Notes under the pieces: model-generated
What the model was told of the DNA's origin: nothing
The model's input: only the letters and a program-made list of their open reading frames with translations
Databases searched by the model: none
Program-made: the position numbers and the translations under genes
Shown: positions 69 to 16,041 of the stretch, piece by piece
Layout of the letters: each line of letters begins with the position of its first letter
How positions within the stretch are numbered: the first letter of the stretch is position 1
NCBI GenBank assembly: GCA_963849885.1
Contig: CAWKIV010000006.1
Span: forward strand, 653,032-717,031
Origin: an uncultured Actinomycetota bacterium
Lineage (GTDB): Bacteria; Actinomycetota; Actinomycetes; Mycobacteriales; CADCTP01
Reading direction: 5' to 3'
Length of the DNA stretch: 64,000 bases

Positions 69-947
69 GTGACGACGGTCGGTGCGGTCTTCCTGCCCCA
101 GTTCCCGCCCGAGCGGCTGCGCCCGGTCGCCGCGGCGGCCGACGCGGCCGGCCTGGCCCAGCTGTGGCTGTGGGAGGACTGCTTCTGGGAGAGCGGCATC
201 GCGGCCGCGGCGGCGGCGCTGGCCTGGACCGAGCGGCTGCAGGTCGGCGTCGGGCTGCTGCCGGTGCCGCTGCGCAACGTGGCGATCACCGCGATGGAGC
301 TGGCCACGCTGCACCGGCTCTTCCCGGGTCGGCCCGTCATCGGCGTCGGGCACGGCGTGCAGGACTGGATGGGTCAGGTCGGCGCGCGGGTCGAGTCGCC
401 GCTCACGCTGCTGCGGGAGCAGCTGGACGCGCTGCGGGCGCTGCTGGCCGGCGAGACGGTCAGCACGACCGGCCGGTACGTCCGGCTGGACGGGGTGGCG
501 CTGGACTGGCCGCCGGACCCGGCGCCGCCGGTGCTGGCCGGCGCCGAGGGCCCGCGCACGCTGCACCTGGTCGGCGGGCACGCCGACGGCACGATCCTCA
601 CCGGCGGCACGTCCCCGGCGGAGGTCACCCGGGCCCGGGAGCTGATCGAGGCCGGCCGCGCGGAGGCCGGCCGGACCGACCCGCACCAGGTGATCGTCTA
701 CCTGCTCGCCGCCGGCGGGCCGGACGCGCGGGCCCGGGTCGACGCCCAGCAGGAGCGCTGGGGCCGGTCGCCGAGCCCGGACGGGTCCGCGGCCGGGTCG
801 GTGGCCGACGTCGCCGAGCAGGTGGCCCGCTGGGCCGCGGCCGGCGCCGACACCGTGGTCCTGCAGCCGACCCAGGACGAGCCCGACCCCGCCGGCTTCG
901 TCGCCTTCGCCGCCGAGGTCGGCCGGGCGGTCACCCGCGCCGGCTGA
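69..947 (+). CDS. LLM-class (luciferase-like) F420/flavin-dependent oxidoreductase
   Basis: 292-aa ORF with a GTG start and near-saturated GC3. Sequence stretches (FLPQFPPERL, LWLWEDCFWESG, IGVGHGV, TILTGG) are typical of the luciferase-like monooxygenase family. Confidence 0.8.
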   Translation: MTTVGAVFLPQFPPERLRPVAAAADAAGLAQLWLWEDCFWESGIAAAAAALAWTERLQVGVGLLPVPLRNVAITAMELATLHRLFPGRPVIGVGHGVQDWMGQVGARVESPLTLLREQLDALRALLAGETVSTTGRYVRLDGVALDWPPDPAPPVLAGAEGPRTLHLVGGHADGTILTGGTSPAEVTRARELIEAGRAEAGRTDPHQVIVYLLAAGGPDARARVDAQQERWGRSPSPDGSAAGSVADVAEQVARWAAAGADTVVLQPTQDEPDPAGFVAFAAEVGRAVTRAG

Positions 948-980
948 CCGCGGTCGGGCGGTCACCCGCGCCGGCTGACC
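925..980. repeat. Perfect 25-bp direct repeat x2 (GGGCGGTCACCCGCGCCGGCTGACC), period 31
   Basis: Copies read directly at 925-949 and 956-980. Copy 1 holds the TGA stop (945-947) of the + gene. Copy 2 holds a second TGA (976-978, different frame) and the TCA (962-964) that ends the minus-strand ORF. Confidence 0.9.
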
Positions 981-1363
981 GGCCCGTCCGCGCGGCGGGC
1001 GACCACCACGATCTCCGGGCTGGTGTCGGTGAGCGGGCCGCGCTGCCAGTCGCCGTAGCACTCGACGACGACCAGCCCCGCCCCGGCCAGGAACCGGTCC
1101 AGCTCCGGCCGGCCGAGGAACCGCAGCACGCCCGGATCCACCTGCCGGCGCCAGCGGCCGCCGTCCGTGGTCTCGGTGAAGCTGACCAGGTCCCCCTCGA
1201 CGGCCACCACCTCGTACGACACCCGAACCCGCGCCCCCTCGTAGGTGAGCTCGAAGGCGGTGCCGTGCCAGTCCTCCCAGGCCCGCGCGCCCGGGTTGCG
1301 GGTCTCGAAGGCGACCCGTCCGGCCGGGCGTCCTCGACGTCGGCGTAGCTCACGGGCGCCGGC
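962..1363 (-). pseudogene. C-terminal remnant of a class I SAM-dependent methyltransferase
   Basis: The stop-to-stop frame reads GRVAFETRNPGARAWEDWHGTAFEL...LRFLGRPELDRFLAGAGLVVVECYGDW...EIVVVARR, which resembles only the C-terminal half of actinobacterial class I methyltransferases. There is no N-terminal Rossmann/GxGxG part. The frame opens directly after the stop of the neighbouring DinB gene, and the only start candidate is an internal GTG at 1222. Confidence 0.5.
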
Positions 1364-1870
1364 TCACTCGCCGGTCTGGCCGTCGATCCGCTCCCGGATC
1401 AGGTCGGCGTGGCCGTTGTGCCGGGCGTACTCGCCGACCAGCTTCTGCAGGTTCCAGCGCAGGCTGTAGCCGTTGCCGGCGCCGACGGAGCCCAGCTCGG
1501 CGTGCTCGGCGATCCGCTCGTCGGCGGCCTGCCTCTCCCGCGCCCAGGCGGCCATCGAGTCCGCCGCCATCGACGCGTCCGCGTCGATGTCCCACTCCGG
1601 GCCGTCGTCGGTGTACTCGCCCCAGACCCAGTGCAGCTCCGCCTTCGGCCCCAGCGCCCAGCTGCCGTACGCCCGCTCCATCTCGGTCAGGTGCCGGACC
1701 AGGCCGAGCAGGGACAGCGGCGACGGCGGCGCGGACCGGGTGACCAGCTGCTCGGCGTCGAGCCCGGCGCACTTGGCCTCGAGGGCGTTGCGGTGGAAGG
1801 CGAGCCAGCCGAGCAGGACGCTGCGCTCGTCCCCGTCGGGTGGCTCCGGCACGCGGGTCATGGCGCTCAT
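1364..1870 (-). CDS. DinB/DUF664 family protein
   Basis: The real gene is the last 168 aa of the 1364..2815 track ORF (MSAMTRVPEPPDGDERSVLLGWLAFHRNALEAKCAGL...HNGHADLIRE), a typical DinB-like four-helix-bundle pattern. ATG at 1870. The upstream part of the track ORF is out-of-frame overlap with the dioxygenase gene. Confidence 0.8.
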   Translation of the reverse strand: MSAMTRVPEPPDGDERSVLLGWLAFHRNALEAKCAGLDAEQLVTRSAPPSPLSLLGLVRHLTEMERAYGSWALGPKAELHWVWGEYTDDGPEWDIDADASMAADSMAAWARERQAADERIAEHAELGSVGAGNGYSLRWNLQKLVGEYARHNGHADLIRERIDGQTGE

Positions 1871-1969
1871 GCCGAGGGAGGATGGCACGGCCCGGCCCGT
1901 CCGTCGCCGGGATTCCGCCGGCTCGCCGGCCACGCGCCTTAGGCTGGCCCGGACGGGACAGGTGGTGCC

Positions 1970-2869
1970 ATGACCGAGGCCGGGGTCGCCCGCGAGGTCG
2001 ACCGGACGACGGTGACCGGGGAGGTGCTGCGGAGCTTCGCCGGCACCCGGGACGCCCGGCTGCGGCAGTGTCTCGAGGTGCTGACCCGCCACCTGCACGA
2101 CGCCGTCCGCGAGCTGGAGCCGACGCTGGCCGAGTGGCGGGCGGCGCTCGACTTCCTCACCGCGACCGGCCAGGCCTGCGACGACGTCCGGCAGGAGTTC
2201 GTCCTGCTGTCCGACGTGCTCGGCGTCTCCTCGCTGGTGGAGAGCCTGACCCGGCGGGCGCCGGGCGCCACCGAGCCGACCGTGCTCGGGCCGTTCCACC
2301 AGGTGGCCTCGCCGCCGCGGGCGCTCGGCGACTCGCTGGACGAGCTCGGCCAGGCCGACCGCGGGCTGGTCAGCGGCCGGGTGCTCGGCATCGACGGCCG
2401 GCCGGTCGCCGGCGCCCAGGTCGACGTGTGGCAGGCCGACGAGGCCGGCCGCTACGACGTCCAGGAGCCCGACCGGCAGCCGCCGGGCAACGGCCGCGGC
2501 CTGTTCACCGCGGACGGGGCGGGCCGGTTCCGGTTCACCACCGTCGTGCCCAGCGCCTACCCGATCCCCACCGACGGGCCGGTCGGCCGGCTGCTGCTGG
2601 CCACCGGGCGGCACCCGTACCGGCCGGCGCACATCCACTTCCTGGTCACCGCGGCCGGCTTCGCGCCGCTGACCACCCACCTCTTCGTGGCCGGCAGCCC
2701 GTACCTGGACTCGGACGCGGTCTTCGCGGTGAAGGCGAGCCTGGTCCGCGACTTCGCCCGGGTGGACGACCCGGACACGGCCGCCGCGCACGGGCTGCCC
2801 AACCCGTACCGGCACGCCTCGATCGACCTGGTGCTCGCCCCGGACGAGGCGGGACCGCGGCCGGGGTGA
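1970..2869 (+). CDS. Intradiol ring-cleavage dioxygenase (hydroxyquinol/catechol 1,2-dioxygenase type)
   Basis: 299 aa. Contains GPF...G.V.G.DG.P..GA.VDVWQAD..G.Y, YPIPTDGP and RPAHIHF motifs characteristic of intradiol dioxygenases. Confidence 0.9.
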   Translation: MTEAGVAREVDRTTVTGEVLRSFAGTRDARLRQCLEVLTRHLHDAVRELEPTLAEWRAALDFLTATGQACDDVRQEFVLLSDVLGVSSLVESLTRRAPGATEPTVLGPFHQVASPPRALGDSLDELGQADRGLVSGRVLGIDGRPVAGAQVDVWQADEAGRYDVQEPDRQPPGNGRGLFTADGAGRFRFTTVVPSAYPIPTDGPVGRLLLATGRHPYRPAHIHFLVTAAGFAPLTTHLFVAGSPYLDSDAVFAVKASLVRDFARVDDPDTAAAHGLPNPYRHASIDLVLAPDEAGPRPG

Positions 2870-3924
2870 GCGGCTGGGAGGGCCGGTCCTTCGTCGTGCC
2901 GCCGCTGCCGACCCGGGTGGTCGCCGGCCCTGGCTCCCGGCGGGACGCGGGCGCCGAGCTGGCCCGGGCCGGGATCCGCCGGGTGCTGGTGCTCAGCACC
3001 CCGCGGGGACGGGCGGCGGCCGACGAGATCGCGGCCGGCGCGGTGGCCACCTTCGACGGCGCCCGCCGGCACGTCCCGGTCGAGGCGGTCGCCGCGGCCG
3101 AGGCGGCGGTCCGGCGGGCCCGCCCGGACGGGTGCCTGGCCGTCGGCGGCGGGTCCACCATCGGCCTGGCCAAGGCGCTGGCGCTGCGCGCCGGCCTGCC
3201 GTACGTCGCCGTCCCGACCACGCTGGCCGGCTCGGAGATGACGTCGATCTGGGGGCTGACCGAGGGCGGCCGGAAGGCCACCGGGCGGGACGAGCGGGTC
3301 CGGCCGGTCACCGCGGTCTACGACCCCGAGCTGCTCGCGTCCCTGCCGGTGCCGACCGCGGTGACCAGCGGCCTGAACGCGCTGGCGCACGCGGTCGAGG
3401 CGCTGTACGCCCCGGACGGCTCGCCGCTGGTGGACCTGCTGGCGACCGAGGGCGCGGCGGCGGTGACCGGGGCGCTGCGCGACCTGCTCGACAGTCAGGA
3501 CATCCAGGCCCGCGCCACCGCCCAGTACGGCGCCTGGCTGTGCGGGATCTGCCTGGGCGCGACCACCATGTCGCTGCACCACAAGCTCTGCCACCTGCTC
3601 GGCGGCCGGTACGACCTGCCGCACGCGGAGACCCATGCGACCGTGCTGCCGCACGTCATGGCCCTCCTGCTGCCCGCCGCGGACCGGGCCGACCGGCTGC
3701 TGGCCGGCGCGCTCGGCGACGACCGGCCGGAGCGGGTGGTGTGGGAGCTCGGCCGGTCCGCCGGCGACCTCTCGCTGCGCGCGCTCGGGCTGCCGGAAGG
3801 CGCGCTCGGCGAGGTCCGCGACCTGGTCCGGCGGGAGGTCGCCGACTCGGTGCCGGCGGCGGGGCTGGACGGCCTGCTGCGCGCCGCGTACCAGGGCGCG
3901 CCGCCGCGGCGGACCGTCACCTGA
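2866..3924 (+). CDS. Maleylacetate reductase (iron-containing alcohol dehydrogenase family)
   Basis: The GTG at 2866 overlaps the dioxygenase TGA (GTGA coupling). The sequence GGGSTIGLAKA...VPTTLAGSEMT...HHKLCHLLGG...PHAETHA is typical of maleylacetate reductases. It is in frame with the tail of track ORF 1840..3924. Confidence 0.85.
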   Translation: MSGWEGRSFVVPPLPTRVVAGPGSRRDAGAELARAGIRRVLVLSTPRGRAAADEIAAGAVATFDGARRHVPVEAVAAAEAAVRRARPDGCLAVGGGSTIGLAKALALRAGLPYVAVPTTLAGSEMTSIWGLTEGGRKATGRDERVRPVTAVYDPELLASLPVPTAVTSGLNALAHAVEALYAPDGSPLVDLLATEGAAAVTGALRDLLDSQDIQARATAQYGAWLCGICLGATTMSLHHKLCHLLGGRYDLPHAETHATVLPHVMALLLPAADRADRLLAGALGDDRPERVVWELGRSAGDLSLRALGLPEGALGEVRDLVRREVADSVPAAGLDGLLRAAYQGAPPRRTVT

Positions 3925-3982
3925 CCGGTGGACACTTCGGGCGAGCGGGTAGGGATCGGCACAACGGGGTACCGAGCCGACC

Positions 3983-4183
3983 ATGACCGAGCTCCCCCTG
4001 CACATCCTGACCGACGCCGGCTTCACCGCCGAGGAGGCCGACTCCGTGGTCCGGCACCTCAAGGCCGGGGTCAACCTGCACGACGACCGCCCGCAGACCG
4101 ACCGCATCGACGTCGAGGCGCTGCCCCCGGAGAAGAAGGACGCGGTGGACCGCTTCACCAAGGCGGTCGCCGCGGACGCGTGA
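3983..4183 (+). CDS. Small acidic hypothetical protein (66 aa)
   Basis: ATG start and essentially 100% G/C at third positions, which argues for real coding. No family recognised. Confidence 0.6.
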   Translation: MTELPLHILTDAGFTAEEADSVVRHLKAGVNLHDDRPQTDRIDVEALPPEKKDAVDRFTKAVAADA

Positions 4184-4225
4184 CCGGCCCCCGGCGGCAG
4201 GACGCGTGACCGGCCCCGGCGGCAC
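4175..4225. repeat. Tandem duplication (about 25-26 bp x2) of GACGCGTGACCGGCCCC(C)GGCGGCA
   Basis: Copies read directly at 4175-4200 and 4201-4225. Each contains a TGA (4181 is the stop of the 66-aa ORF; 4207 is in a different frame). Confidence 0.85.
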
Positions 4226-4239
4226 TAGGGTCCGGTGGC

Positions 4240-4968
4240 GTGAAGCTGCGTGAGGACGAGGTCCGGGTGCCGGCGCCGGACGGCGACATCCGGTCCGTGC
4301 TGATCGGGCCGGCCGGCGCCGGCCGGTGGCCCGGGGTGCTGCTCTACACCGACATCTTCCAGGTGACCGAGTCGACGCTGCGGACGGCGCGGCGGCTGGC
4401 CGCGGCCGGCTTCCTGGTCTGCGTGCCGGAGATCTACCCGCACGGCCCGCTGGCCGGGGTGGCGCTGGAGTTCGACGACGCCGGCAAGCAGGCCGGCCTG
4501 GCCGCGGCGAAGGCCACCACCACCGCTCAGTTCGACGCCGACCGGGTCGCGGTCCTGGACTTCCTGGCCGAGCGGGCGGACCCGCTGTTCGCCACCGGCT
4601 TCTGCCTGGGCGGGCACCTGGCCTTCCGGGCGGCGTTCGACCCGCGGGTGGCGGCGACGGTGTGCTTCTACCCGACCGGCCTGCACGACGGCGCGCTCGG
4701 CGCGGACGCCGACGCGGGCTCGCTGGCCCGGGCCGGCGACATCGGGGGCCGGCTGCTGGTCGTCCTCGGCTCCCGCGACCCGCACGTGCCGGCCGGCGCT
4801 CGGGTCGAGATCGTGACCGCGCTCTACGCGGCCGGCCTGGAGGACGTGGAGCTGCACGTCTACGCGGGCGGCGAGCACGCCTTCATGCGCGACGTCGGCG
4901 CCCGCCACGACCCCGTCCTGACCGACCTCGCGCTGGCCGAGGCGGTCTCCTTCCTCACCGGCCGCTGA
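4240..4968 (+). CDS. Dienelactone hydrolase family protein
   Basis: 242 aa. Alpha/beta-hydrolase pattern with a nucleophile motif GFCLGG and a C-terminal GGEHAF, as in dienelactone hydrolases. Adjacent to the dioxygenase and maleylacetate reductase genes. Confidence 0.85.
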   Translation: MKLREDEVRVPAPDGDIRSVLIGPAGAGRWPGVLLYTDIFQVTESTLRTARRLAAAGFLVCVPEIYPHGPLAGVALEFDDAGKQAGLAAAKATTTAQFDADRVAVLDFLAERADPLFATGFCLGGHLAFRAAFDPRVAATVCFYPTGLHDGALGADADAGSLARAGDIGGRLLVVLGSRDPHVPAGARVEIVTALYAAGLEDVELHVYAGGEHAFMRDVGARHDPVLTDLALAEAVSFLTGR

Positions 4969-4980
4969 GGGTCCCGGCGG

Positions 4981-5946
4981 CTACGGCGAGCCGAGGCGGG
5001 GCAGCACGTCGGCGCCGAAGACGTCGATGAACTCGTCGTCCTCGCCGACCGGGTGCAGGTAGAGCTCGGAGAAGCCGAGCTCCTGGTACGAGCGCAGCTC
5101 GTCGGCCAGCCGGCCCGCGTCCGAGGAGACCAGCACGTTGCGGGCCACCTCCTCCGGCGGGACGTGCCGGGTGGCCGCCTCGAACTGCTCCGGCGTCTCC
5201 AGCTCCCAGGCCAGGCTGGTCGGCAGGCAGTTGCTGCGCCACTTCTCGTGCGCCACCGCGAGCGCCTCGTCGTCGTCCCGGGCCCAGGACAGGTGCACCT
5301 GCAGGTGCAGGTCGCCCCGGCCGCCGGCGTCCCGGTACGCGTCCACCACCTTGCGCAGCAGCTCCGGCGGCTGGTTGACGGTGATCAGCCCGTCCGCCCA
5401 CCCGGCCGCCCAGGCCGCGGTCTCCGCGCTGATCGCGCCGGCCACCAGCCGCGGCGGCTCGTCCGGCAGCGTCCACACCCGGGCCCGGTCCACCACCACC
5501 AGCCCCCGGTGGGTGACCTCCTCGCCGCGCCACAGCGCCCGCATCACGTCGACGCACTCCCGCAGCCGCGCCATCCGCACGTCCTTGGTCGGCCAGGGGT
5601 CGCCGGTGACGTGCTCGTTGAGCGCCTCGCCGCTGCCGACCGCGACCCACGGGAAGCGGCCGGGGAACATCGCCGCCAGGGTGGCGAAGGCCTGCGCCGA
5701 GATGACCGGGTGGTAGCGCTGGCCGGGGGCGTGGAAGCAGCCCATCGGCACCCGCTCGGTCGCCTGCAGCGCGGCGCCGAGCCAGGCCCAGGTGAGCGCG
5801 GAGTGGCCCTGGCTGCGGCTCCACGGCGCCAGGTGGTCCGAGCACATCACCGCGTCGAAGCCGGCCTGCTCGGCGTGCACGGCGGAGGCCAACAGCTCCC
5901 GCGGGTGGGCCTGCTCGTGCTGCGCGTGGAATCCGATGAGCGGCAT
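4981..5946 (-). CDS. LLM-class F420-dependent oxidoreductase
   Basis: 321 aa. The sequence MPLIGFHAQHEQ...FDAVMCSDHLAPW...FPGRFPWVAVGSGEALNEHV is typical of the F420-dependent LLM subfamily related to G6P dehydrogenase. Confidence 0.85.
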   Translation of the reverse strand: MPLIGFHAQHEQAHPRELLASAVHAEQAGFDAVMCSDHLAPWSRSQGHSALTWAWLGAALQATERVPMGCFHAPGQRYHPVISAQAFATLAAMFPGRFPWVAVGSGEALNEHVTGDPWPTKDVRMARLRECVDVMRALWRGEEVTHRGLVVVDRARVWTLPDEPPRLVAGAISAETAAWAAGWADGLITVNQPPELLRKVVDAYRDAGGRGDLHLQVHLSWARDDDEALAVAHEKWRSNCLPTSLAWELETPEQFEAATRHVPPEEVARNVLVSSDAGRLADELRSYQELGFSELYLHPVGEDDEFIDVFGADVLPRLGSP

Positions 5947-6036
5947 GGCCCCCTCCTACCCCGGGCACCCCTCCGCCGTACCGCCGTCCGGCTCAGCCGA
6001 GCCAGTAGAAGCGCGCCCGGTGGGTAGGTCTCCACC

Positions 6037-6732
6037 ATGACCGCTTCTCCCGTCCTGGTGGCCCAGTGGGCGGCGTGCGGGATCGCCGCCGCCGCGGCCC
6101 GCTTCGTGCCGGTGCCGATGCTCGACGACGTGATCCGCGAGCGGGCGGCCCAGGTCGCGGTGAGCCGGACGCTGCGCGCGCACGGCCGGACCTACTCCTC
6201 CGAACGGGTGGAGCCGCTGTGGGCGGTCGCGGACGACGGCCGCGGGATCGGCCGGCGGGTCAAGGACATGTCGCTGAAGGTGCTGCTCTTCCCGGTCCGC
6301 CGGTACCACGCCCTCTTCGGCTCGGTCCGCGGCGTGCCGACCGACGTGATGGTGCTGCTGCTGCTGGCCCGCACCGTCGACCGCCGGCTGGACCGGGGCG
6401 ACCTGGCCGCGGACGCCGACCCGGACCGGCTGGCCGCGCAGGCGCGCGACATCCGCCAGGCGGTGGACCGGGCGCTGGACGGCATGGACCTGCGGATGCT
6501 CAGCGCCGGGCTCAGGGACGGCCTGTCCCAGGGCCGCGGCCTCAGCGCGGCCGCGGTGGCGTACGCGCGGCGCTGGTTCGTCAAGCGGGGCACCGAGCCG
6601 GACCTGCAGCCCGGCGGCGAGGTGTCCGCCGGGGCGCGGCGGATCGCCGACGTGCTCCGCCAGCCGGAGGTCGCCCAGCTGCTGGACCGCTTCGACGAGC
6701 AGGTGGACGGCGCCCTGGCCCGCGCGTCCTGA
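6037..6732 (+). CDS. Hypothetical protein
   Basis: 231-aa ORF with ATG start, high GC3 and balanced composition. No family recognised. Confidence 0.6.
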   Translation: MTASPVLVAQWAACGIAAAAARFVPVPMLDDVIRERAAQVAVSRTLRAHGRTYSSERVEPLWAVADDGRGIGRRVKDMSLKVLLFPVRRYHALFGSVRGVPTDVMVLLLLARTVDRRLDRGDLAADADPDRLAAQARDIRQAVDRALDGMDLRMLSAGLRDGLSQGRGLSAAAVAYARRWFVKRGTEPDLQPGGEVSAGARRIADVLRQPEVAQLLDRFDEQVDGALARAS

Positions 6733-6743
6733 CCGCGCGCCGC

Positions 6744-6800
6744 GGCCCGGATCTCGACGGGCCGGATCTCCGCCGACGGCCCGGATCTCGACGGGCCGGA
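6744..6800. repeat. 23-bp perfect direct repeat x2 (GGCCCGGATCTCGACGGGCCGGA), period 34
   Basis: Copies read directly at 6744-6766 and 6778-6800. An additional CCGGATCTC copy lies at 6762-6770. The repeat is intergenic, upstream of the lipoprotein gene start at 6831. Confidence 0.85.
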
Positions 6801-6830
6801 ACCGATCCGCCGGCGCCGCGTCCGAGAGGC

Positions 6831-8741
6831 ATGCGTGCTCCGGTACGGGCGGTGGTGGGACTGGCGGCGGTGGCGGTCGGGCTGGCCGGCTGCACCGGAG
6901 CGGGAGCGGGACCCGGGCCGGACCCCGGGTCGCCGCCCGAGCCGGCGCCGGCGATCCGGCTGGTCGCCTTCGACTCCTGCGGGTCCGCGCTGCGCGAGCT
7001 GACCCGGGCCGCGGACCCGTACGTCGGGCCGTACGGGCTGCCGGCGCCGGGCGTCTGGGATGCCAGGGCGCGGACCGGGGGGCCGGACAGCGTCGCGGCC
7101 GGCGACGCCGCGGCCGCACCGAGCGCACCGCAGCCGCCGCCGGCGCACTCGACGACGACCGCTCACGAGGCCGGCGTGGACGAGCCGGACGTGGTCAAGA
7201 CCGACGGCCGGCGGATCGTCAGCGTGCTCGGCGACCGGCTGCGGGTGGTCGACCTGGCCGACCGGCGGGTGACCACCGTCCCCGGCCTCCCGTCCGGCCC
7301 GATGTCGCAGCTGCTGCTGCACGGGGACCGGGCCCTGGTGGTGGTGCCGTACGGCGGGGGCGACCGGGCCGGCGGCCCGGCCGGGGCCCGCTTCGTGCTG
7401 GTCGACCTCACCGGGGCCGGCCGGGTCCTGGAGACGCTGACCGTGGACGGCGCGTACGTCGACGGCCGGCAGGTCGGCGGGGTGGCCCGGCTGGTGGTGC
7501 GGTCCGGTCCGCGGCTGACGTTCGTCCAGCCGCACGAGCGGCTGTCCCCCGACGCCGCCCAGCGGGAGAACCGCCGGATCGTGGCCCGGTCGGCCATCGA
7601 CGACTGGCTGCCCCGCTACCAGCTCGACGGCGGCGGCAGCCGGCAGCAGGGCCGGCTGGTGGACTGCGCCCGGGTCAGCCGCCCGGCGGCGTACTCCGGG
7701 GCCTCGATGCTCACCGTGCTGACCGTCGACCTGGCCGGCCGGCTCGGCACCGGCGACCCGGTCGGCGTCGTGGCCGACGGCGACGTGGTCTACGGCACCG
7801 CCACCAGCCTGTACGTGGCCGCCCAGGAGTGGCCGGCCACGGCCGACGGCCCGCTCCGCGGGCCGGCGCGGCCCCGGGCCCGGCCGCAGCGCACCGAGGT
7901 GCACAAGTTCGACCTGCCCGGGGCCGGCCGGCCGCGGTACGCCGCGTCCGGGTCGGTGTCCGGCTGGCTGCTCAACCAGTACGCGCTGTCCGAGCACGAC
8001 GGCCGGCTCCGGGTGGCGACCACGCTCGACCTCGGCAACGGCCGGGACACCTGCTGCGACGGGCCGCCGCGGACCGAGAGCGCGGTCACCGTGCTGGAGC
8101 CGCGGGACGACCGGCTGGTCCTGGTCGGCCGGCTCGGCGGCCTGGGCAAGGGCGAGCAGATCTTCGCGGTCCGCTTCGTCGGGCCGGTCGGCTACGTGGT
8201 CACCTTCCGGCGGACCGACCCGCTGTACACAGTGGACCTCAGCGACCCGGCGCGGCCGCGGGCGGTGGGCGAGCTGAAGATCACCGGCTACTCGGCGTAC
8301 CTGCACCCGACCGGGGAGACCACCCTGCTCGGCGTCGGCCAGGAGGCGACCGACCAGGGCCGCACGCTCGGCACCCAGGTCTCCCTCTTCGACGTCGGCG
8401 ACCCGGCCCGGCCGCGGCGGACCGCGCAGCACCAGGTGGCGTACGGGCACTCCGAGGTGGAGTTCGACCCGCACGCCTTCCTCTACTGGCCGGCCGCGCG
8501 GCTCGCGGTGCTGCCGGTGCTGCCGGGGACGGCGGCCGGGCCGCAGCGCGGCGCCGGCGCGCTGGTGCTGCGGGTCGGCGACGGCCGGCTCGACCCGGTC
8601 GGCACCGTCCGGCACCCGCAGGACGTGACGATCCGGCGGTCGCTGGTGGTCGGCGACACCCTGTGGACGGTCTCCGACCTCGGCGCCCGCGCGGTCGCGG
8701 TCGCCGACCTGGCCGACCGGGGCTGGGTGCCGTTCAGCTGA
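6831..8741 (+). CDS. Beta-propeller domain-containing lipoprotein (Beta_propel-like)
   Basis: ATG at 6831, in frame with track ORF 6066..8741. Signal peptide plus lipobox (VGLAGC). Conserved stretches VVKTDGRRIV, YGTATSLYVA, WLLNQYALSEHDGRLRVATT, IFAVRFVG..GYVVTFRRTDPLYTVDLSDP, KITGYSAYLHP and FDPHAFLYW are typical of this family. Confidence 0.85.
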   Translation: MRAPVRAVVGLAAVAVGLAGCTGAGAGPGPDPGSPPEPAPAIRLVAFDSCGSALRELTRAADPYVGPYGLPAPGVWDARARTGGPDSVAAGDAAAAPSAPQPPPAHSTTTAHEAGVDEPDVVKTDGRRIVSVLGDRLRVVDLADRRVTTVPGLPSGPMSQLLLHGDRALVVVPYGGGDRAGGPAGARFVLVDLTGAGRVLETLTVDGAYVDGRQVGGVARLVVRSGPRLTFVQPHERLSPDAAQRENRRIVARSAIDDWLPRYQLDGGGSRQQGRLVDCARVSRPAAYSGASMLTVLTVDLAGRLGTGDPVGVVADGDVVYGTATSLYVAAQEWPATADGPLRGPARPRARPQRTEVHKFDLPGAGRPRYAASGSVSGWLLNQYALSEHDGRLRVATTLDLGNGRDTCCDGPPRTESAVTVLEPRDDRLVLVGRLGGLGKGEQIFAVRFVGPVGYVVTFRRTDPLYTVDLSDPARPRAVGELKITGYSAYLHPTGETTLLGVGQEATDQGRTLGTQVSLFDVGDPARPRRTAQHQVAYGHSEVEFDPHAFLYWPAARLAVLPVLPGTAAGPQRGAGALVLRVGDGRLDPVGTVRHPQDVTIRRSLVVGDTLWTVSDLGARAVAVADLADRGWVPFS

Positions 8742-9480
8742 CCAGCAGGGCCAGCACCGCGGCCGGGTCCTCGACGTGCGCGTTGTGGCCCAGGCCGGGC
8801 AGCGTGACCGCGTCCGGCCGCAGCGCGGCCAGCTGGTCGGCGCCGACCATCGGGTCGGTCTCGCCGCGGGCCAGCACCACCCGGGCCCGGCAGGCGGCCA
8901 GCAGGCCGGGCAGGTCCGGGGCGCCGACCGCGAACGCCTTCGGGTCCAGGGCCAGCCGCCAGCCGCCGGCGTGCTCGCGCAGGCCGGCGGTCACCGCGGC
9001 GCCGCCGGCCGGCAGCAGGCCGGCCAGGCCGGACACCCGCAGGTGCCGGGCCGCGGCCTCGTCCCGGGTGGCGAAGTCCGGCACCGGCCGGTCGGCGAGC
9101 GCCCGGGCCCGGTCCAGCTCCGCGCCGGTCCAGGCCACCTTGATGCCCAGCCCGACCACGGTCTCCACCGGCGCGCCGAACCAGCCGCTGCCCAGCGCCA
9201 GCCCGACCACGCCGCCCAGCGAGTGGCCGAGCACCACGGTGCGGCCGGCCGGCTCGACCAGGTCGGCGAGCGCGGCGGCCAGCCCGCCGAACGAGTACCG
9301 CGGCAGCGGCGCCGACCCGCCGTGCCCGGGCAGGTCCGGCGCCAGCCAGCGGCCCGGCCACCGCTCGGCCAGCAGCGGCCGCCAGCCGTCCCACACGTCC
9401 GCGGTCGCGCCGAGCCCGTGCAGCAGGAGCAGCACCGGCTCGCCGGCGCCGCCCCCGGTCACCCGCAGTCGATCAGCCAC
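8734..9480 (-). CDS. Alpha/beta hydrolase
   Basis: 248 aa. HGLG oxyanion motif, GHSLGG nucleophile elbow and C-terminal GHNAH. Confidence 0.85.
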   Translation of the reverse strand: MADRLRVTGGGAGEPVLLLLHGLGATADVWDGWRPLLAERWPGRWLAPDLPGHGGSAPLPRYSFGGLAAALADLVEPAGRTVVLGHSLGGVVGLALGSGWFGAPVETVVGLGIKVAWTGAELDRARALADRPVPDFATRDEAAARHLRVSGLAGLLPAGGAAVTAGLREHAGGWRLALDPKAFAVGAPDLPGLLAACRARVVLARGETDPMVGADQLAALRPDAVTLPGLGHNAHVEDPAAVLALLVS

Positions 9481-9493
9481 GCCGGGAGCGTAG

Positions 9494-10279
9494 CTACCGG
9501 AGCAGCCGGACGAGCAGCTCCTGCACCGCCGGGCCCGGCGCGACGCCGAGCTCCTCCCGCAGCAGCGCGCGCAGCCGCTCGTACGTGACCAGCGCCGCGG
9601 CCACGTCGCCCTGGTCGGCCTGGGCCCGCATGAGCAGCCGGTGGCCGGTCTCGCTCAGCGGGGCGAGCTCGACCAGCCGGCGGGCCGCCCGCTCGGCGCC
9701 GCCGAGCTCGCTGCCGCCGATGCCGAGGCAGGCCTCGGCGTAGTACGACAGCGCGCGCTGGTGCACCAGGTCGAGCCGGCCCCGCCACTCGTCGATCCAG
9801 TCGCCGTCCGCCTCCGGCAGGAACCGCCGGCGGGTGACCAGCTGCGCCGCGAGCGCCCGGGACCAGGCGCGCGGCCACTGGTGCTGGGCGACCGCGGACT
9901 CCGCCTCGTGCACGGCCGCCAGCGCCAGCTCGACGTCGACCCGGGCCGCCGCCGGCAGCCGCAGGGTCACCGCGGTCCGGCCGGCCAGCACGTCCCGGCC
10001 GAGCACGGCGCGCACCTTGGAGAGCAGCACCACGAGCGAGGCCGCGGCGGCGTCCGGGTCGGCGTCCGGCCAGAGCGCGTCGACCAGGGTGGCCCGGTCG
10101 ACCGGGTGCGGCCGGCGGACGGTGAGGAAGGCGACCAGCAGCCGGGCCCGTCGGCCGGGCAGGGCGGCATCGACCGGGCGGCCGCCGAGCTCGACGGTGA
10201 ACCGGCCGCAGAGCTGGATCCTGGCGCTGGAGTCCGTCACGGCAACTTTCCGGCAAGGTTGTGGTCGGTATTGTGGCAA
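9494..10279 (-). CDS. SARP/AfsR-type transcriptional regulator (winged-helix plus BTAD domain)
   Basis: IQLCGRFTVELGGRPV...LLVAFLTVRRPHPVDRATLVDALWPD is an OmpR-type DNA-binding region. It is followed by a BTAD-like helical domain (...RLLMRAQADQGDVAAALVTYERLRALLREELGVAPGP). The true start may be the GTG at 10240. Confidence 0.8.
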   Translation of the reverse strand: MPQYRPQPCRKVAVTDSSARIQLCGRFTVELGGRPVDAALPGRRARLLVAFLTVRRPHPVDRATLVDALWPDADPDAAAASLVVLLSKVRAVLGRDVLAGRTAVTLRLPAAARVDVELALAAVHEAESAVAQHQWPRAWSRALAAQLVTRRRFLPEADGDWIDEWRGRLDLVHQRALSYYAEACLGIGGSELGGAERAARRLVELAPLSETGHRLLMRAQADQGDVAAALVTYERLRALLREELGVAPGPAVQELLVRLLR

Positions 10280-10528: not shown

Positions 10529-11584
10529 GTGGCGATCGACGAGGACAAGCTGACCGAGCTGATGGGCCGGTTCGTGGCCGACCTGGGGGCGACCGTGACC
10601 GCCGCCAACCTGGTGGTGGGCGACCGGCTCGGGCTCTACCGCGGGCTGGCCGAGATCGGCCCGGCCTCCTCCGCGGACCTGGCCACCCGCACCGCGACGG
10701 CGGAGCGGTACGTCCGGGAGTGGCTGCGCGGCCAGGCGGCCGGCGGCTACGTGACGTACGAGCCGGAGACGGACCGCTACCGGCTGACCGAGGAGCAGGC
10801 GCTGGCCTTCGCCGACCCGGACGGGCTGGCCCTGCCGGGCGCGTTCCAGCTCGCCGCGGCGTGCTTCCGGGAGGCGGCGGTCATCACCGAGGCGTTCCGG
10901 ACCGGCGCCGGCTTCGGCTGGCACCAGCACGACCCGGAGGTCTTCACCGGCACCGAGCGGTTCTTCCGGCCCGGGTACGTGGCCAACATCGTGTCGTCCT
11001 GGATCCCGGCGCTGGACGGGATGGTGGACCGGCTGACCGCCGGCGGCACGGTCGCCGACGTCGGCTGCGGACTCGGCACGTCGAGCCGGCTGATCGCGGA
11101 GGCGTTCCCGGCCAGCACGGTGGCCGGCTCCGACTACCACGCCGAGTCGATCCGGCTGGCGGCCAAGGCGGCCGCGGACGCCGGGCTGGCCGACCGGGTG
11201 CGCTTCGAGGTGGCGGCCGCGGACGCCTTCCCCGGCACCGGCTTCGACCTCGTCGCGACCTTCGACGCCCTGCACGACATGGGCGACCCGGTCGGCGCCG
11301 CCCGGCACATCCGGCAGGCGCTGGCGCCGGACGGCACCTGGATGCTGGTCGAGCCGTACGCCGAGGACGACGTGGCCGGCAACCTCGGCCCGGTGGGCCG
11401 GCTGTACTACGGCTTCTCCACCTTCCTCTGCGTGCCGCACGCCATCTCCGAGCACGCCACCGACGCGCTCGGCAACCAGGCGGGCGAGCCGAGGATGCGG
11501 GAGATCGCCGCGGCGGCCGGCTTCACCCGGTTCCGCCGGGCCGCCGAGACCGCGTTCAACATCGTGTACGAGGTCCGGCCCTGA
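10529..11584 (+). CDS. Class I SAM-dependent methyltransferase with N-terminal winged-helix dimerisation-like domain
   Basis: 351 aa with SAM motif VADVGCGLG and DLVATFDALHDMGDP. Confidence 0.85.
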   Translation: MAIDEDKLTELMGRFVADLGATVTAANLVVGDRLGLYRGLAEIGPASSADLATRTATAERYVREWLRGQAAGGYVTYEPETDRYRLTEEQALAFADPDGLALPGAFQLAAACFREAAVITEAFRTGAGFGWHQHDPEVFTGTERFFRPGYVANIVSSWIPALDGMVDRLTAGGTVADVGCGLGTSSRLIAEAFPASTVAGSDYHAESIRLAAKAAADAGLADRVRFEVAAADAFPGTGFDLVATFDALHDMGDPVGAARHIRQALAPDGTWMLVEPYAEDDVAGNLGPVGRLYYGFSTFLCVPHAISEHATDALGNQAGEPRMREIAAAAGFTRFRRAAETAFNIVYEVRP

Positions 11585-11590
11585 CCCGCG

Positions 11591-12603
11591 CTACGCCCCG
11601 CTGCCCGCGGCGCCGAGCGGCGGGCGGTGCAGCCAGTCCAGCAGGTCCGGCGGGGCCAGCTCGGCGGCGCGGGCCGCGTACCGGGCGGTGCCGGCCGCGC
11701 CGAGCTCCTCCCGGCCGGCGCCGGACCGGCCGCGGCGGAAGAACGCGGCCCGGTCCTTGAGCACGCCCCCTTTGTCCGGGGCGAGCTGGTCGGCGCGCGC
11801 CCGCATCCGCTCGAAGCGGGCCGCGTCGACCAGCTCCGGGGTGGGCGGGGCCAGGTCCAGCCGGGCGGCCAGTCGGCGCATCTCGCCGGCGAGGTCGGTG
11901 GACAGGTCGTGGTAGTGCACCAGCACCACGTTGGGCTCGTCCCGCCGCCGCCAGGCGTCGGCCAGGTGGGCCAGCACGCCGGGCAGCGAGTCCAGCTCCT
12001 CCCGCGGGTCGGCGTCCCGGTCGACCCAGCGGGCGACCGCCTCGGCCACCGACCGCCGCGGCGCCGACGACCCGCCCTCCAGCCCCTGCCCGTCGCCCGG
12101 CGGCGGGCCGGCGCCCGGCGGCGGGTCGGCGCCCAGCGGCGGCCGGCCGGCGGCGGTGCGGCCGGCCCAGCGGCGGCCGGCGGCTGGCCGGCCGGCGGCT
12201 GGCCGGCCAGCTCGCGGACCCGGGCGCGGTCGATGTTGTCGCTCTGGTGGACCAGCGAGACGATCATGTCCAGCGGGTGCCGGCCGACCACGACGTAGGT
12301 CGCCCGCGGGTCGATCGGCACGCCGTCCAGCGGGGTATGGGTCTTGATCACCCGCCGGTGCGGCTGCGCGGCGAGCCGGGCGACGACCTCGTCCCGCGGC
12401 TCGACCAGCCAGTCCAGCCACGGCGACAGCTCGATCAGCGGGCGCGGCAGCTCCGGCGTCCGCAGGATGAGCAGCAGGCAGATCATCTGCACCCAGGTGG
12501 TGCCGCTCTTCGACCGGGTGCTCACCACCACGTCTCCGGCCCGGAACGGGAAGCCCTCCCACCGCGCGCTGTCTTCCTCGGGCGATCGGTAGCGAACCGT
12601 CAC
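11591..12603 (-). pseudogene. Sulfotransferase family protein, reading frame broken in an internal Pro/Ala/Gly-rich repeat
   Basis: The N-terminal half (from 12603) carries the PAPS-binding STRSKSGTTW and RVIKTHTP motifs in one frame. The C-terminal half (LDSLPGVLAHLADAWRRRDEPNVVLVHYHDL...FFRRGRSG, stop at 11591) is in another frame. The switch falls in GC-only short repeats near 12120-12170. Confidence 0.75.
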
Positions 12604-12624
12604 CCGCGTACCGTAACGCCGCGA

Positions 12625-14101
12625 TCAGGCGACCCGTTGTGGCGTGCTGCCGGCCGGCCCCGGTGGCGCGGCGGTCCACCGGCCGGTCGGGTCGCGGCCC
12701 AGCCTCCACCGTCCCTCATGGACGGTGCGGTGGTGACGACGGCACAGCAGCACCAGGTTGTCGAGGCTGGTGGCGCCGCCGTCGGCCCAGTGTCGGACGT
12801 GGTGGGCATCGGTCCAGGGCGGCGGGCGGTCGCAGCCCGGGAAGGCGCAGCCCCGATCCCGGACCACGAGCGCCGTCCGGATCGCGGGTGGGACCACCCG
12901 GCTGCGCCGGCCGACGTCGAGCGGCCGGCTGGCCGGGTCCAGCACGACGCGGGTGACGGAGGCGTCCAGGCGAGCCGGCGAGCGGCCTCCGCGCCGATCA
13001 CCCCCCCCACACCGTGTCGGCACTCCCCGCCGCCAGACCGCCCGTCATCCGGGAGCCCCGCCCGGAGCCATCACCGCCGGCCCTGGCGTCAGCCCGACCG
13101 CCGTCCATGCCGGGGGCGGTGGCCGAGCGCGCTACCGCGGCCGGACTCCCCACCGCAACCGGATCCCCCACCGCAGCCGGATTCCCCGCCGCAGCCGGAT
13201 GCGCAGCGGCGGACAGGAGCGCTGCGGCGGTCGGGGGGCAGCTCGCGGTGTCGCAGGCCGAGCCCGCCCGCCCGGGAACACCGGGCTCGGGACGGGAGGG
13301 CAAGGCGGCGAGTGGGACCAGCACGGTCAGGTGGGGCCGCTCGCCGCCCGCCGCGGGCAGCGCGCCGCCGTCGAGCGCCCGGCGGCACAGCTCGACCAGC
13401 CCGTCGGCCCGACGGTGGCTGGGGCTGCGGTCGTCGTCCGGGCCGGAGCGTCCGCACAGCGGGGCGAGCGCGGTGAGCAGCGCCTCGCCGCCCTCGGCGT
13501 CGAGCACGCCGTTGACCACCACGGTGCCGTCGAACGTGCTCGCCACGTCGAGATGGCGGCGCCGGTGCGCCGCCTCGTCGGCGGCGATCGCCACTTCCGG
13601 GACCAGCGCATGCCTGGCGTGCGCGATCTCCCGCCGCAGTCGGGCGGGGTCGCACCGCCGGCCGGCCTCCAGCAGCGGCACGGTCGCCGCGGCCGCGAGC
13701 GGCGCTCCCGCAGCCTCCTCGAGCTCGGCGAGCGCGGTCGTGACCAGCTGGGCATGGTCCACCGAGATGTCGCCGGCGACGAGGCCGGCATCGACCGCGG
13801 AATTCGCGCTCAGGCGCCGCGCCAGCACGACCCGCCGCCGGGCGACGCCGGGCGACAGCCGGCAGGCGGACCGGAGCCAGGTCGCCGTCCCGGTCTCCGC
13901 CGGGAGGGAACCCGAGCCATCGAGGACGGCGACCAAGCGGGACCAGACCCCCTCGAGGCCGTCGATCAGCCGCCGCAGCTCGACCACGCCCTCGCCGACC
14001 TCCGTCGCGGGCCGGTCCGTCCAGTCCTCGGCGGCCAGCGCCGACACCGCGATCCGGAGCCGGTGAAGACCGGGCTCCGTCGAGTCGCGGGTGTCGAACA
14101 T
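12625..14101 (-). pseudogene. DUF222/HNH endonuclease (13E12-repeat-like), frameshifted at a C8/G8 homopolymer
   Basis: The N-terminal DUF222-like part (ATG 14101 ... stop at 12998) and the HNH part (CAFPGCDRPPPWTDAHHVRHWADGGATSLDNLVLLCRRHH, 12625..13023) are in different frames. They overlap at the C run at 13001-13008. Removing one base joins them into one continuous ORF. Confidence 0.8.
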
Positions 14102-14183
14102 GTGTTCGATCGTACCGTAAAGAACGCCTTTCTGCCGCCCGACCGGAGGGCCGCGATAGCTTTGATGCGATAGGGTTGGAGGT

Positions 14184-14453
14184 ATGACTGCGGAGCGGCC
14201 GCTGCCGGTGTTCCCCGGGCTGCGCGAGCTGGCCGAGCGGCGCCGTCGTGGGGTGATCGACGAGCTGGCGGCCGCCCGGCGCGAGCAGGGCCTGTCCCAG
14301 ACGGTGGTCGCGGCCCGGATGGCGACCTCCCAGTCCGTGGTGGCCCGGCTGGAGTCCGGCGCCATCGACGTGCGACTGTCCACACTGGAGCGGTACGCGG
14401 CCGCGGTGGACCGCGACCTCGAGCTGCGGCTGCGCCCGCCGGACCCGCGATGA
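14184..14453 (+). CDS. XRE-family helix-turn-helix protein
   Basis: 89 aa. The HTH_3-like core is GLSQTVVAARMATSQSVVARLESGAIDVRLSTLERYAAAV. Confidence 0.85.
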   Translation: MTAERPLPVFPGLRELAERRRRGVIDELAAARREQGLSQTVVAARMATSQSVVARLESGAIDVRLSTLERYAAAVDRDLELRLRPPDPR

Positions 14454-15136
14454 GCGCCGCGTACGAGCCGCCGCACGGGCCGCCGGAGTTCCCGCCCGGC
14501 CGGCCGCCGCTGCAGCCGATCGTGCCTCGCTGGACCCCGCCGCAGCCCGGCCGCCCGGAGCCGTCCCGGTCGCCGCTGCCCGGCTTCCCGCTGGTCGCGC
14601 CGCCGTCGCCCGGCTCCGCCGAGGACCGGCTGCGGGAGCGCGGGATCGTGCTGCTGTCCGGCTTCCTCGACGGCGCCGCCGCCCAACGGGCCGCGGCCGC
14701 CCTGATGCTGCTGGACGCCGAGCACGACGGGCCGGTCCGGCTGCACCTCGGCTGCCCGGACGGCGACCTCGACGCCGCGCTGCTGCTGGCCGAGACCGTC
14801 GACCTGCTCACCCTGGACACCACCGCGCTGGTCACCGGCGTGCTCGGCGGGCCGGTGCTCGCCGTGCTGGCCGCGGCCGGCCGCCGGGAGGCGCACCGGC
14901 ACGCGTTGCTCCGGCTGCGGGAGCCGACCGGCACCGCGGCCGGCCGGGCCGACCGGCTGGCCGCGGACGCCGAGCAGCACGCCCGGCAGGTCGCCCAGCT
15001 GCACGAGCGGCTGGCCGCGGCGACCGGGCGGGACGCCGCTGAGATCGCCGACGACCTGCGGGCCGGCCGGCTGCTCACCGCCGAGCAGGCCGTCGACTAC
15101 GGCCTGCTCCACGCCGTGCGGCCCGACCGCCGCTGA
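14450..15136 (+). CDS. ClpP-like protein lacking the catalytic triad, with a proline-rich N-terminal extension
   Basis: The ATG at 14450 overlaps the XRE stop (ATGA). Residues about 60-222 are colinear by eye with the E. coli ClpP core (VLLSG...LHLGCPDGDL...LVTGVLGGPV...LRLREP...LLTAEQAVDYGLL). The Ser/His/Asp positions read Gly133/Arg157/Gly206. The first about 55 aa are strongly Pro-rich. Confidence 0.7.
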   Translation: MSAAYEPPHGPPEFPPGRPPLQPIVPRWTPPQPGRPEPSRSPLPGFPLVAPPSPGSAEDRLRERGIVLLSGFLDGAAAQRAAAALMLLDAEHDGPVRLHLGCPDGDLDAALLLAETVDLLTLDTTALVTGVLGGPVLAVLAAAGRREAHRHALLRLREPTGTAAGRADRLAADAEQHARQVAQLHERLAAATGRDAAEIADDLRAGRLLTAEQAVDYGLLHAVRPDRR

Positions 15137-15267
15137 CAGCTCGGCGGCCGCAGCTGACCGGACCGCCCGACCGCCGCTCGCCAGACGGCGGCTACCGCTG
15201 ACCGGACGGCAGCGGCCGGCAACCGGACGGCCCGACCGCCATCGACGGACCAGTTGGTGTCAACGGG

Positions 15268-16041
15268 TCAGGTCACCCGCGCCACCGTCGAGGTGCCGTA
15301 GCGGGCGGCGACCAGCGACTTGATGCCGGCCGGGAAGGACGCGGCGGCGGCCAGGTGGGCGGCGGTCAGCTGCCGCTGGGCCGCCGGGTCGCCGGTGAAG
15401 GCGGCCGCACAGAGTGCCGGCTCCGCGTTGGCCAGCGCGAGGATCGCACCCGGGCAGCCGAGCGGGCCGGCGAAGGACAGCACCGCGGACGAGCCCGGGT
15501 AGAGGTGACCGTCCCAGACGGACAGCGTGTGCAGCAGCCGCTCCGGGTCGCCGCTGGAGTCCTTCGCGCCGATCACCGGCAGGTCCGGCAGCAGCGCGAC
15601 CGGGATGCCGGGCGGGGACGCGGCCGGGAAGTGGTACGCCAGCAGCGGCAGGTCGCCGGCCGCCGCGGCCACTTCCGCGTAGTACGGCCGGGGGTCCGGC
15701 ACCCGGCGCGGGGACAGCACCAGCGCGGCGTCCGCGCCGGCGTCCCGGGCCGCCGCGGTGCGCCGGGCGGCCTGACCGGCCCAGCCACCGCCGGTGCCGG
15801 CGAGCACGGTCACCCCGTCCAGCCGGCCGCGCACCGCGTCCAGCAGCCGGCGGCGCTCGTCCTCGTCCAGGGTGTCGGCCTCGCCGGTCGAGCCGGCGAC
15901 CACGACCGCGCGCACGCCGTCGTCGACCAGCCGGGCGGCCAGGTCCGCGGTGGCGGCGGCGTCGACCGCGCGGGTGTCGTCGAAGAGCGTGACCAGGGCG
16001 ACGCCGATCCCGGTGAAGGGCGGCGATGCGGCAGCATCCAC
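15268..16041 (-). CDS. Dihydrodipicolinate synthase/N-acetylneuraminate lyase family protein
   Basis: 257 aa with a GTG start. The patterns VALVTLFDD...VVVAGSTGE...L..DER...AG.G and IGAKDSSGD are typical of the DapA family. Confidence 0.8.
   Translation of the reverse strand: MDAAASPPFTGIGVALVTLFDDTRAVDAAATADLAARLVDDGVRAVVVAGSTGEADTLDEDERRRLLDAVRGRLDGVTVLAGTGGGWAGQAARRTAAARDAGADAALVLSPRRVPDPRPYYAEVAAAAGDLPLLAYHFPAASPPGIPVALLPDLPVIGAKDSSGDPERLLHTLSVWDGHLYPGSSAVLSFAGPLGCPGAILALANAEPALCAAAFTGDPAAQRQLTAAHLAAAASFPAGIKSLVAARYGTSTVARVT

Follow-up and report, generated by a model that had tools for sequence, protein, structure and literature searches.

The window analysed here is a 64-kb stretch (64,000 nucleotides, 75.5% GC) of contig CAWKIV010000006.1 from an uncultured Actinomycetota bacterium (assembly GCA_963849885.1), and it contains a pair of genes encoding a small helix-turn-helix (HTH) protein of the XRE family and a ClpP-like protein without the catalytic triad. 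The XRE gene (14184–14453, forward strand) encodes 89 amino acids and is the putative DNA-binding subunit, and the ClpP-like gene (14450–15136, forward strand) encodes 228 amino acids. The two open reading frames (ORFs) overlap by a stop/start ATGA at 14450–14453 (+), as a preliminary description of this DNA had noted, and this arrangement, read from the sequence, indicates translational coupling. The GC content at third codon positions (GC3) is 0.93 for the XRE gene and 0.99 for the ClpP-like gene, which is coding-like in a window of such composition. The ClpP-like frame is also open for 92 codons upstream of its own ATG (14174–14449, +), spanning the whole XRE gene, which is probably an effect of high GC. 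A programmed frameshift fusing both ORFs was considered and rejected, as no slippery site was seen before the stop and long alternative frames are normal at 75% GC.

The downstream protein is a genuine ClpP-family homologue, with a whole-domain profile match and the ClpP fold. Its residues 60–223 (14627–15118, +) correspond to profile positions 12–178 of 182 of CLP_protease (PF00574) in Pfam (E=3.2e-18, 66.7 bits, cut-off 20.2), and the best match to solved ClpPs in phmmer reaches 2e-17. The AlphaFold model has a mean predicted local distance difference test score (pLDDT) of 87.6, exceeding 95 in the core, and superposes in Foldseek on the Thermus, M. tuberculosis, S. aureus and E. coli ClpP structures with a root-mean-square deviation of ~1.5 Å over ~175 residues, with the ClpP head and handle both intact. 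The colinearity of residues ~60–222 with the ClpP core, previously drawn by eye, is thereby supported by profile and structure, and the Pfam search proposed at that time gives a significant match above the cut-off. According to alignments to solved ClpPs and a MAFFT alignment with E. coli ClpP, all three triad residues are replaced: Ser97 by Gly134 (codon 14849–14851, +), His122 by Arg157 (14918–14920, +) and Asp171 by Gly206 (15065–15067, +). The earlier assignment of Arg157 and Gly206 stands, whereas its Gly133 should read Gly134, residues 133 and 134 both being glycine. A proper alignment thus does not restore Ser, His and Asp, and with these residues at the triad positions the protein is unable to act as a serine protease, as had been proposed.

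The loss is shared by the family. Among 151 sequences (the query and the best 150 cluster representatives), the Ser97 position is Gly in 146 and the Asp171 position is Gly in 114, and the residue at His122 varies, with S, R, A and T among those found there; the Pro following the ClpP His-Gln is retained in 140. The near-uniform Gly at the nucleophile position, combined with the conserved scaffold, suggests that the active site was lost once and that the remaining scaffold has been maintained since. The ClpP-like protein also falls below every NCBIfam ClpP cut-off (TIGR00493, 55.7 bits versus 308.6), the best subfamily model being NF009205 (68.2 versus a cut-off of 228). A prophage head-maturation protease was rejected as an identity for it, because the NCBIfam models for such enzymes give much lower scores than those for ClpP and phage context is absent. 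The surfaces through which ClpP meets its partners are likewise altered. ClpP receives the IGF/LGF loops of Clp ATPases in a hydrophobic pocket, which ClpP–acyldepsipeptide (ADEP) structures place at E. coli Y60, Y62, F82, I90, M92, F112, L114 and L189. In the window protein Y60 is replaced by R, Y62 by H, M92 by T, F112 by E and L114 by H (E. coli numbering), and these five ATPase/ADEP pocket positions are polar and variable throughout the family. The E169/R170 pair, the ring–ring sensor, reads R/A and is not conserved in the family either.

At the N-terminus, residues 1–55 (14450–14614, +) form a Pro-rich arm with a PPEFPP motif, containing 21 prolines (~38%). The arm is modelled by AlphaFold with a pLDDT of ~60–67 and no secondary structure, and is predicted to be disordered, in agreement with the preliminary description of a Pro-rich extension of about 55 residues that is extra to ClpP. 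Family N-termini of at least 25 residues are on average 30% Pro and enriched in Trp, and a WPPE[VFI]PP motif recurs ~12 residues from the start, the window protein having GPPEFPP. In this family the Pro-rich arm takes the place of the N-terminal axial-loop region of ClpP.

The XRE protein matches HTH_3 (1.1e-8) and HTH_31 (4.1e-8) in Pfam, both above cut-offs, and a profile search with E<=1e-3 recovers 2591 homologues. Its closest solved relatives in a PDB profile search are HigA antitoxins, namely those of S. pneumoniae (6af3, 7.9e-9) and M. tuberculosis HigA3 (6lty) and HigA2 (7ewc), followed by HipB and phage repressors; a weak match to the Y4mF-antitoxin model TIGR03070 was also found. PADLOC returned generic HTH matches only, together with a weak capH match (0.008). 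ClgR, a regulator that also belongs to the XRE family, has entries in the PDB, and no chain of that name occurs among the 31 PDB matches at E<=1. ClgR and PopR are recognised via a C-terminal Ala-Ala. The window protein has no detectable ClgR relationship and no Ala-Ala degron, its C-terminus being ...RPPDPR. Four residues outside the HTH (P11, G12, R20 and R21) are invariant in a 15-sequence XRE alignment, a pattern that fits a protein–protein contact surface.

The pair recurs widely. An indexed search with the ClpP-like protein returned 56 relatives of 43–99% identity, nearly all of 220–250 aa, and in an exhaustive profile search at least 245 clusters formed at 50% identity passed E<1e-30. 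With the looser limit of E<1e-10 the number rose to 3320, the weakest of these matches grading into true ClpPs. Named relatives come from metagenome-assembled genomes (MAGs) of Actinomycetota (Mycobacteriales, Actinomycetes, Micromonosporaceae, Kribbella, Trebonia and Acidimicrobiaceae), and the pair is found across soil actinobacteria. The peptide patterns of the narrow alignment A2 are clade-specific, so that their 5 loci in 185,579 species genomes say little about distribution. In four of five genome loci, tblastn places an XRE homologue directly 5' of the ClpP-like gene; the gene tables of L006, L007, L010–L013 and L017–L020 list an XRE and a CLP_protease gene overlapping or a few nt apart, and the pairing holds in L001–L003, L005–L007 and L010–L020. 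A metagenome scan with the XRE profile confirmed 548 matches, and in the 80 loci retained from these the ClpP-like gene is next wherever the downstream sequence is long enough; two apparent exceptions open with the Pro-rich N-terminus before the sequence is cut short. The junction is tight, with a 4-nt ATGA or GTGA overlap in 28 of the 44 unique metagenomic junctions and a distance of -20 to +10 nt in 39 of them. Recurrence in about 100 independent loci indicates a pairing far beyond chance, and the co-conservation survey that the preliminary description had called for therefore shows a unit kept in genomic and metagenomic loci alike. The flanks are unrelated between loci and include dehydrogenases, methyltransferases, GntR, PNPOx and transporters, among others.

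Several individual loci depart from this general picture. In L014 and L015 the downstream gene is on record without a Pfam match, yet its product is the triad-less ClpP-like protein, enlarged by a ~45-residue low-complexity stretch rich in Thr/Gly/Ser and Asp (GTGTRTGTGSGSGTG...DTGDTDLDLDRD) that is inserted right after the LLDAD motif (L015 2262–3080, L014 4372–5088), which probably explains the missing match. In Kribbella (L008 3838–6708, and L009) an XRE-less family member is divergent from an FtsH paralogue (AAA + Peptidase_M41) located upstream of it. In an Acidimicrobiaceae MAG (L005 4839–5779, -) a canonical clpP divergently adjoins the pair, the sole such adjacency in ~100 loci; frameshifts interrupt this clpP, whose product includes ...FDIYSLLLRERIVFLGQEVDD...

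In part of the family the two proteins are joined. P0250 (294 aa), present on 6 contigs, carries an XRE domain, a Pro-rich linker and a ClpP-like domain in one chain, and a search with it found at least 30 further clusters (90% identity) of 294–454 aa with PF01381 and PF00574 in one chain, with identities of 46–91%; for some of them the annotated source is a Trebonia sp. MAG. In L102 and L103, which are independent assemblies, the fusion is a single ORF. The Ser97 position is Gly in all 31 aligned fusion sequences, and their N-terminal domain has the LPGFRE...GLSQTEVAARMGTSQSAVARLE signature, which is common to the window XRE protein. Their linker is a Pro-rich segment with a (W)PxEFPRP motif, equivalent to the arm of the split ClpP-like proteins, and the Pro-rich N-terminus of the window protein would thus correspond to the inter-domain tether of the fusions. 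The AlphaFold2 model of P0250 has two confident domains and a disordered linker at 75–110 (predicted template modelling score 0.61). Split relatives, with PF00574 only and 60–70% identical, are interspersed with fusions in the match list of P0250, indicating that fusion or fission occurred inside the family. From this Rosetta-stone evidence we infer that both window proteins act in one complex. In both loci with a fused gene (L102 4174–4683, L103 3419–4096), HATPase_c_2 (anti-sigma-factor-kinase-like) and Amidohydro_2 genes lie upstream of it, and downstream lies a gene for a ~880-aa unannotated protein; this neighbourhood may be conserved for the fused clade.

The upstream regions of the XRE genes share an AT-rich palindrome of 18 bp, TATCTC-N6-GAGATA, in otherwise GC-rich DNA. 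When up to two mismatches in 12 positions are allowed, 39 of 83 unique loci have it in the 120 nt that precede the conserved FPG codon, always with a spacer of 6 nt, and it matches once in the remaining 336 kb of the same loci; it also precedes both fused genes (L102 and L103). Generic inverted-repeat searches of the upstream regions gave no separation from shuffled controls in this GC-rich DNA, and the specific AT-rich palindrome alone did. In the window, the putative operator GATAGC-TTTGAT-GCGATA (14155–14172, +) is a degenerate form of the palindrome in the same position as elsewhere, and GATAGC-N6-GCGATA occurs once in the 64 kb. The operator appears to have drifted in the clade of the window. 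The XRE protein most likely binds the palindrome, and TATCTCAAATATGAGATA, like the 14155–14172 site, is a putative target sequence for it.

A candidate -10 hexamer of the TAnnnT type, TAGGGT (14171–14176, +), overlaps the right operator arm and ends 7 nt before the ATG. In other loci a TAnnnT hexamer likewise follows the right arm and ends 7–10 nt before the start codon, and several have a TTGnnn -35 element 16–18 nt upstream; a sigma-70 promoter and terminator scan of 13900–15400 found nothing. These features probably represent a housekeeping-type promoter with the operator over its -10, and the short distance between the hexamer and the ATG suggests a leaderless or near-leaderless mRNA. A GGAGG at 14179–14183 stands 1 nt ahead of the XRE start codon, nearer than a normal Shine-Dalgarno sequence would lie, and other loci lack it, which fits a leaderless transcript.

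Selection acts on both genes, apparently much more strongly on the XRE gene. XRE and ClpP-like identities in compared pairs are 85 versus 71%, 74 versus 59% and 72 versus 57%, and crude NG86 omega values are 0.07 for the XRE gene and 0.31 for the ClpP-like gene in L017/L019, the closest pair and the only usable one, as other pairs give inflated omega with synonymous divergence compressed at a GC3 of ~99%. This difference suggests that the DNA target of the XRE protein is fixed and that its partner module is more plastic. We reject the idea that the ClpP-like gene is a pseudogene or a decaying paralogue, because its GC3 is that of a coding sequence, an alignment of 28 diverse sequences has 15 invariant columns, and conserved relatives number in the hundreds. 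As regards mobility, 72,556 plasmids and 50,697 phages contained no match to the module at 1e-8, IMG/VR contained 0 ClpP-like loci and 1 distant XRE locus, and no PADLOC model matches the ClpP-like protein. The neighbours are ordinary metabolic genes, with no integrase, transposase or defence genes among them. Compared with the 99%-identical strain L013, synteny runs from 13962 rightwards, and window positions 12805–13961, a 1.16-kb DUF222/HNH body, are replaced in L013 by 8.6 kb of unrelated, mostly unannotated genes (893–9512). The pair therefore adjoins a strain-variable hotspot but lies outside it, synteny resuming ~220 bp upstream of the XRE start. As to the earlier question of whether the module sits in variable regions, the window copy borders such a segment and flanks differ between loci, with no plasmid, phage or viral copies.

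The triad-less ClpP fold, its conservation throughout the family, the near-obligate pairing with an XRE gene, the fusions and the conserved promoter palindrome are observed directly. We read the two genes, with a probability of about 0.6, as one unit encoding a split, autoregulated transcription regulator in which a dead-ClpP module serves as scaffold or sensor. The XRE protein would be the DNA-binding subunit, most likely a dimer on the 18-bp palindrome overlapping its own -10, where its binding would repress the operon. Through the ATGA coupling, the ClpP-like protein would be made stoichiometrically with the XRE protein, and its non-catalytic ClpP-fold module most likely binds the XRE protein, probably supplying oligomerisation and/or signal sensing, with the Pro-rich arm as a flexible tether between the subunits. 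A working Clp core is disfavoured, because the triad, axial loop and pocket residues are absent or not conserved.

Several points weigh against this reading. Both the contact between the XRE protein and its partner and the binding of the palindrome are deduced from sequence patterns. Only 39 of the 83 loci pass the strict palindrome test, the window operator differs from the consensus at 4 of 12 positions, and no further operator site, and no regulon beyond the operon's own promoter, was found in the 64-kb window. Family members without an upstream XRE gene exist in Micromonosporaceae (L004) and Kribbella (L008/L009). A dimer-type HTH would also fit awkwardly onto a heptameric ring of the ClpP type. 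Finally, fused toxin–antitoxin proteins exist in nature, and fusion alone is compatible with a toxin–antitoxin-like mechanism.

A more specific possibility, which we regard as tentative and rather unlikely, is that the dead-ClpP module senses the Clp machinery directly, through transient co-assembly with ClpP1P2, capture by ClpX/ClpC1 or peptide binding in the vestigial active-site cleft, and thereby releases or strengthens DNA binding by the tethered XRE protein. If true, this would be a pseudo-protease transcription switch reading proteolytic capacity, a principle undescribed for any Clp system. Unlikely as well is a type II toxin–antitoxin (TA)-like module, in which the dead ClpP would be a toxin entering or capping the essential ClpP1P2 and the HigA-like XRE protein would neutralise it and autoregulate the operon. 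The TA-like layout suggested in the preliminary description does hold, in that both genes are small and overlap, the closest solved relatives of the XRE protein are HigA antitoxins (with the weak Y4mF-antitoxin match in addition) and a palindromic operator lies on the promoter; flanking genes that vary between loci and the position of the window module ~220 bp from a strain-variable segment also agree with it. However, the many natural single-chain fusions are more easily explained by a regulator with two domains than by a toxin and its antidote, and conservation is much higher in the putative antitoxin than in the putative toxin. The module is single-copy in the window and has no copies in plasmid, phage or viral collections, and its neighbours lack integrase, transposase and defence genes. 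The defence or toxin reading is thus weakened, not refuted, by at least 30 fusion clusters, no mobile copies, metabolic neighbours and the negative PADLOC result for the ClpP-like protein. The same holds for the proposed capping or poisoning of host ClpP rings, as the ATPase-docking pocket and ring–ring sensor residues (Y60, Y62, F112 and E169/R170) are not conserved.

That the protein could instead be a ClpR-like non-catalytic subunit of ClpP1/ClpP2 rings, with the XRE protein merely a dedicated regulator as PopR is for clpP3clpP4, seems quite improbable. The ClpP head and handle are intact and the fold has been kept while the triad was lost, for which ClpR of cyanobacteria and plastids offers a precedent (PMC7966870); ClgR and PopR regulate clpP operons in Streptomyces (PMC9765437), and L005 has a canonical clpP divergently beside the pair. 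Nevertheless, neither the window nor any of the ~100 other loci except L005 has a clpP neighbour, and an HTH-fused core subunit is hard to square with a closed proteolytic barrel. Moreover, the Pro-rich arm replaces the N-terminal axial-loop region, the pocket and sensor residues are variable, and the XRE protein resembles HigA, has no ClgR chain among its 31 PDB matches and ends in PPDPR. A repressor/protease switch of the ImmR–ImmA, CapH–CapP or LexA type, in which the partner would cleave the XRE protein on a signal, is close to refuted because the triad is missing. Its layout of an XRE protein with a protease-family partner is similar, and the weak capH match in PADLOC (0.008) points the same way, but 146 of the 151 family members have no nucleophile or general base near the active-site positions, the partner has an S14 serine-protease fold rather than being a metallopeptidase or S24 peptidase, and the module lies outside defence neighbourhoods.

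The split-regulator reading can be set against known systems. ClpR, the sole well-studied triad-less ClpP paralogue, is a core subunit encoded with clpP in cyanobacteria, plastids and apicoplasts (PMC7966870, PMC6508832). Like the family described here, it has a ClpP-family fold that has lost the Ser-His-Asp triad and is conserved under selection. Unlike ClpR, which assembles with catalytic ClpP, members of the dead-ClpP family are paired with an HTH gene or joined to an HTH domain in one chain and almost never lie beside clpP, operonic association with a catalytic clpP being absent apart from the one locus of about 100 (L005); they also have a Pro-rich arm in place of axial loops and docking-pocket residues that are not conserved. 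ClgR and PopR activate clpP operons in Streptomyces, where ClpP1P2 in turn degrades both regulators (PMC9765437); they resemble the module as small XRE-type regulators linked to a ClpP-family gene in Actinobacteria. They differ from it as activators of catalytic clpP and as Clp substrates, whereas the window XRE protein is HigA-like, has no Ala-Ala and is paired with a dead partner, and TATCTC-N6-GAGATA on the module's own -10 suggests repression.

The small XRE gene with an overlapping downstream partner and a TA-like look is shared with HigA-type antitoxins and with the XRE–DUF397 pairs of Streptomyces, which look like TA systems and are in fact regulators (PMC10364602, PMC6262351). In the present case the XRE protein is paired with a pseudo-protease domain of 170 residues that bears a Pro-rich arm, fused forms are common, and the XRE gene comes first, whereas it is second in higBA. 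In LexA and lambda CI an HTH is combined with an S24 peptidase domain that serves regulation rather than bulk proteolysis, and the likeness lies in a DNA-binding domain joined by a linker to a serine-peptidase-family domain with a regulatory role. The differences are an S14 ClpP fold instead of S24, separate polypeptides in the window and the lack of catalytic residues, which makes a self-cleavage switch impossible. No account of an XRE/dead-ClpP pair or fusion turned up in a search of the full-text literature, most subscription journals lying outside its coverage, in line with the earlier statement that no characterised system of this composition is known. XRE/dead-ClpP is a real, widespread and conserved module that is apparently uncharacterised.

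Actinobacteria cannot live without Clp proteolysis, which in M. tuberculosis is a drug target, and a dead ClpP paralogue wired or fused to a DNA-binding domain represents an uncharacterised part of actinobacterial Clp biology. If the module is a regulator, it would add a new type of effector domain to the XRE family, an S14-fold pseudo-protease, and would be a clean case of pseudoenzyme repurposing with gene fission or fusion. The conserved operator, fused variants and two-gene layout make it directly testable. Since these proteins cannot be proteases, the annotation 'ATP-dependent Clp protease proteolytic subunit' is misleading for genes of this family.

Around the pair, a family-profile scan found no second ClpP homologue in the 64-kb window, where the ClpP-like gene is single-copy, and neither ClpX nor ClpC is among the large ORFs scanned, which encode transporters and metabolic enzymes, in agreement with the preliminary remark that none of the three lies nearby. 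The pair is divergent from a DUF222 ORF (12998–14101, -), as previously noted, but this is not a single intact DUF222–HNH gene: the HNH domain (12625–13023, -) is in a different frame from DUF222, and the neighbour is therefore frameshifted or split, being a pseudogene or reflecting an assembly indel. Further along, a sulfotransferase-like gene (11407–12709, -) seems to be broken over two frames around a Pro/Ala/Gly-rich stretch (GQPPAGQPPAAAGPAAPPPAG), its N- and C-terminal halves lying in different ORFs.

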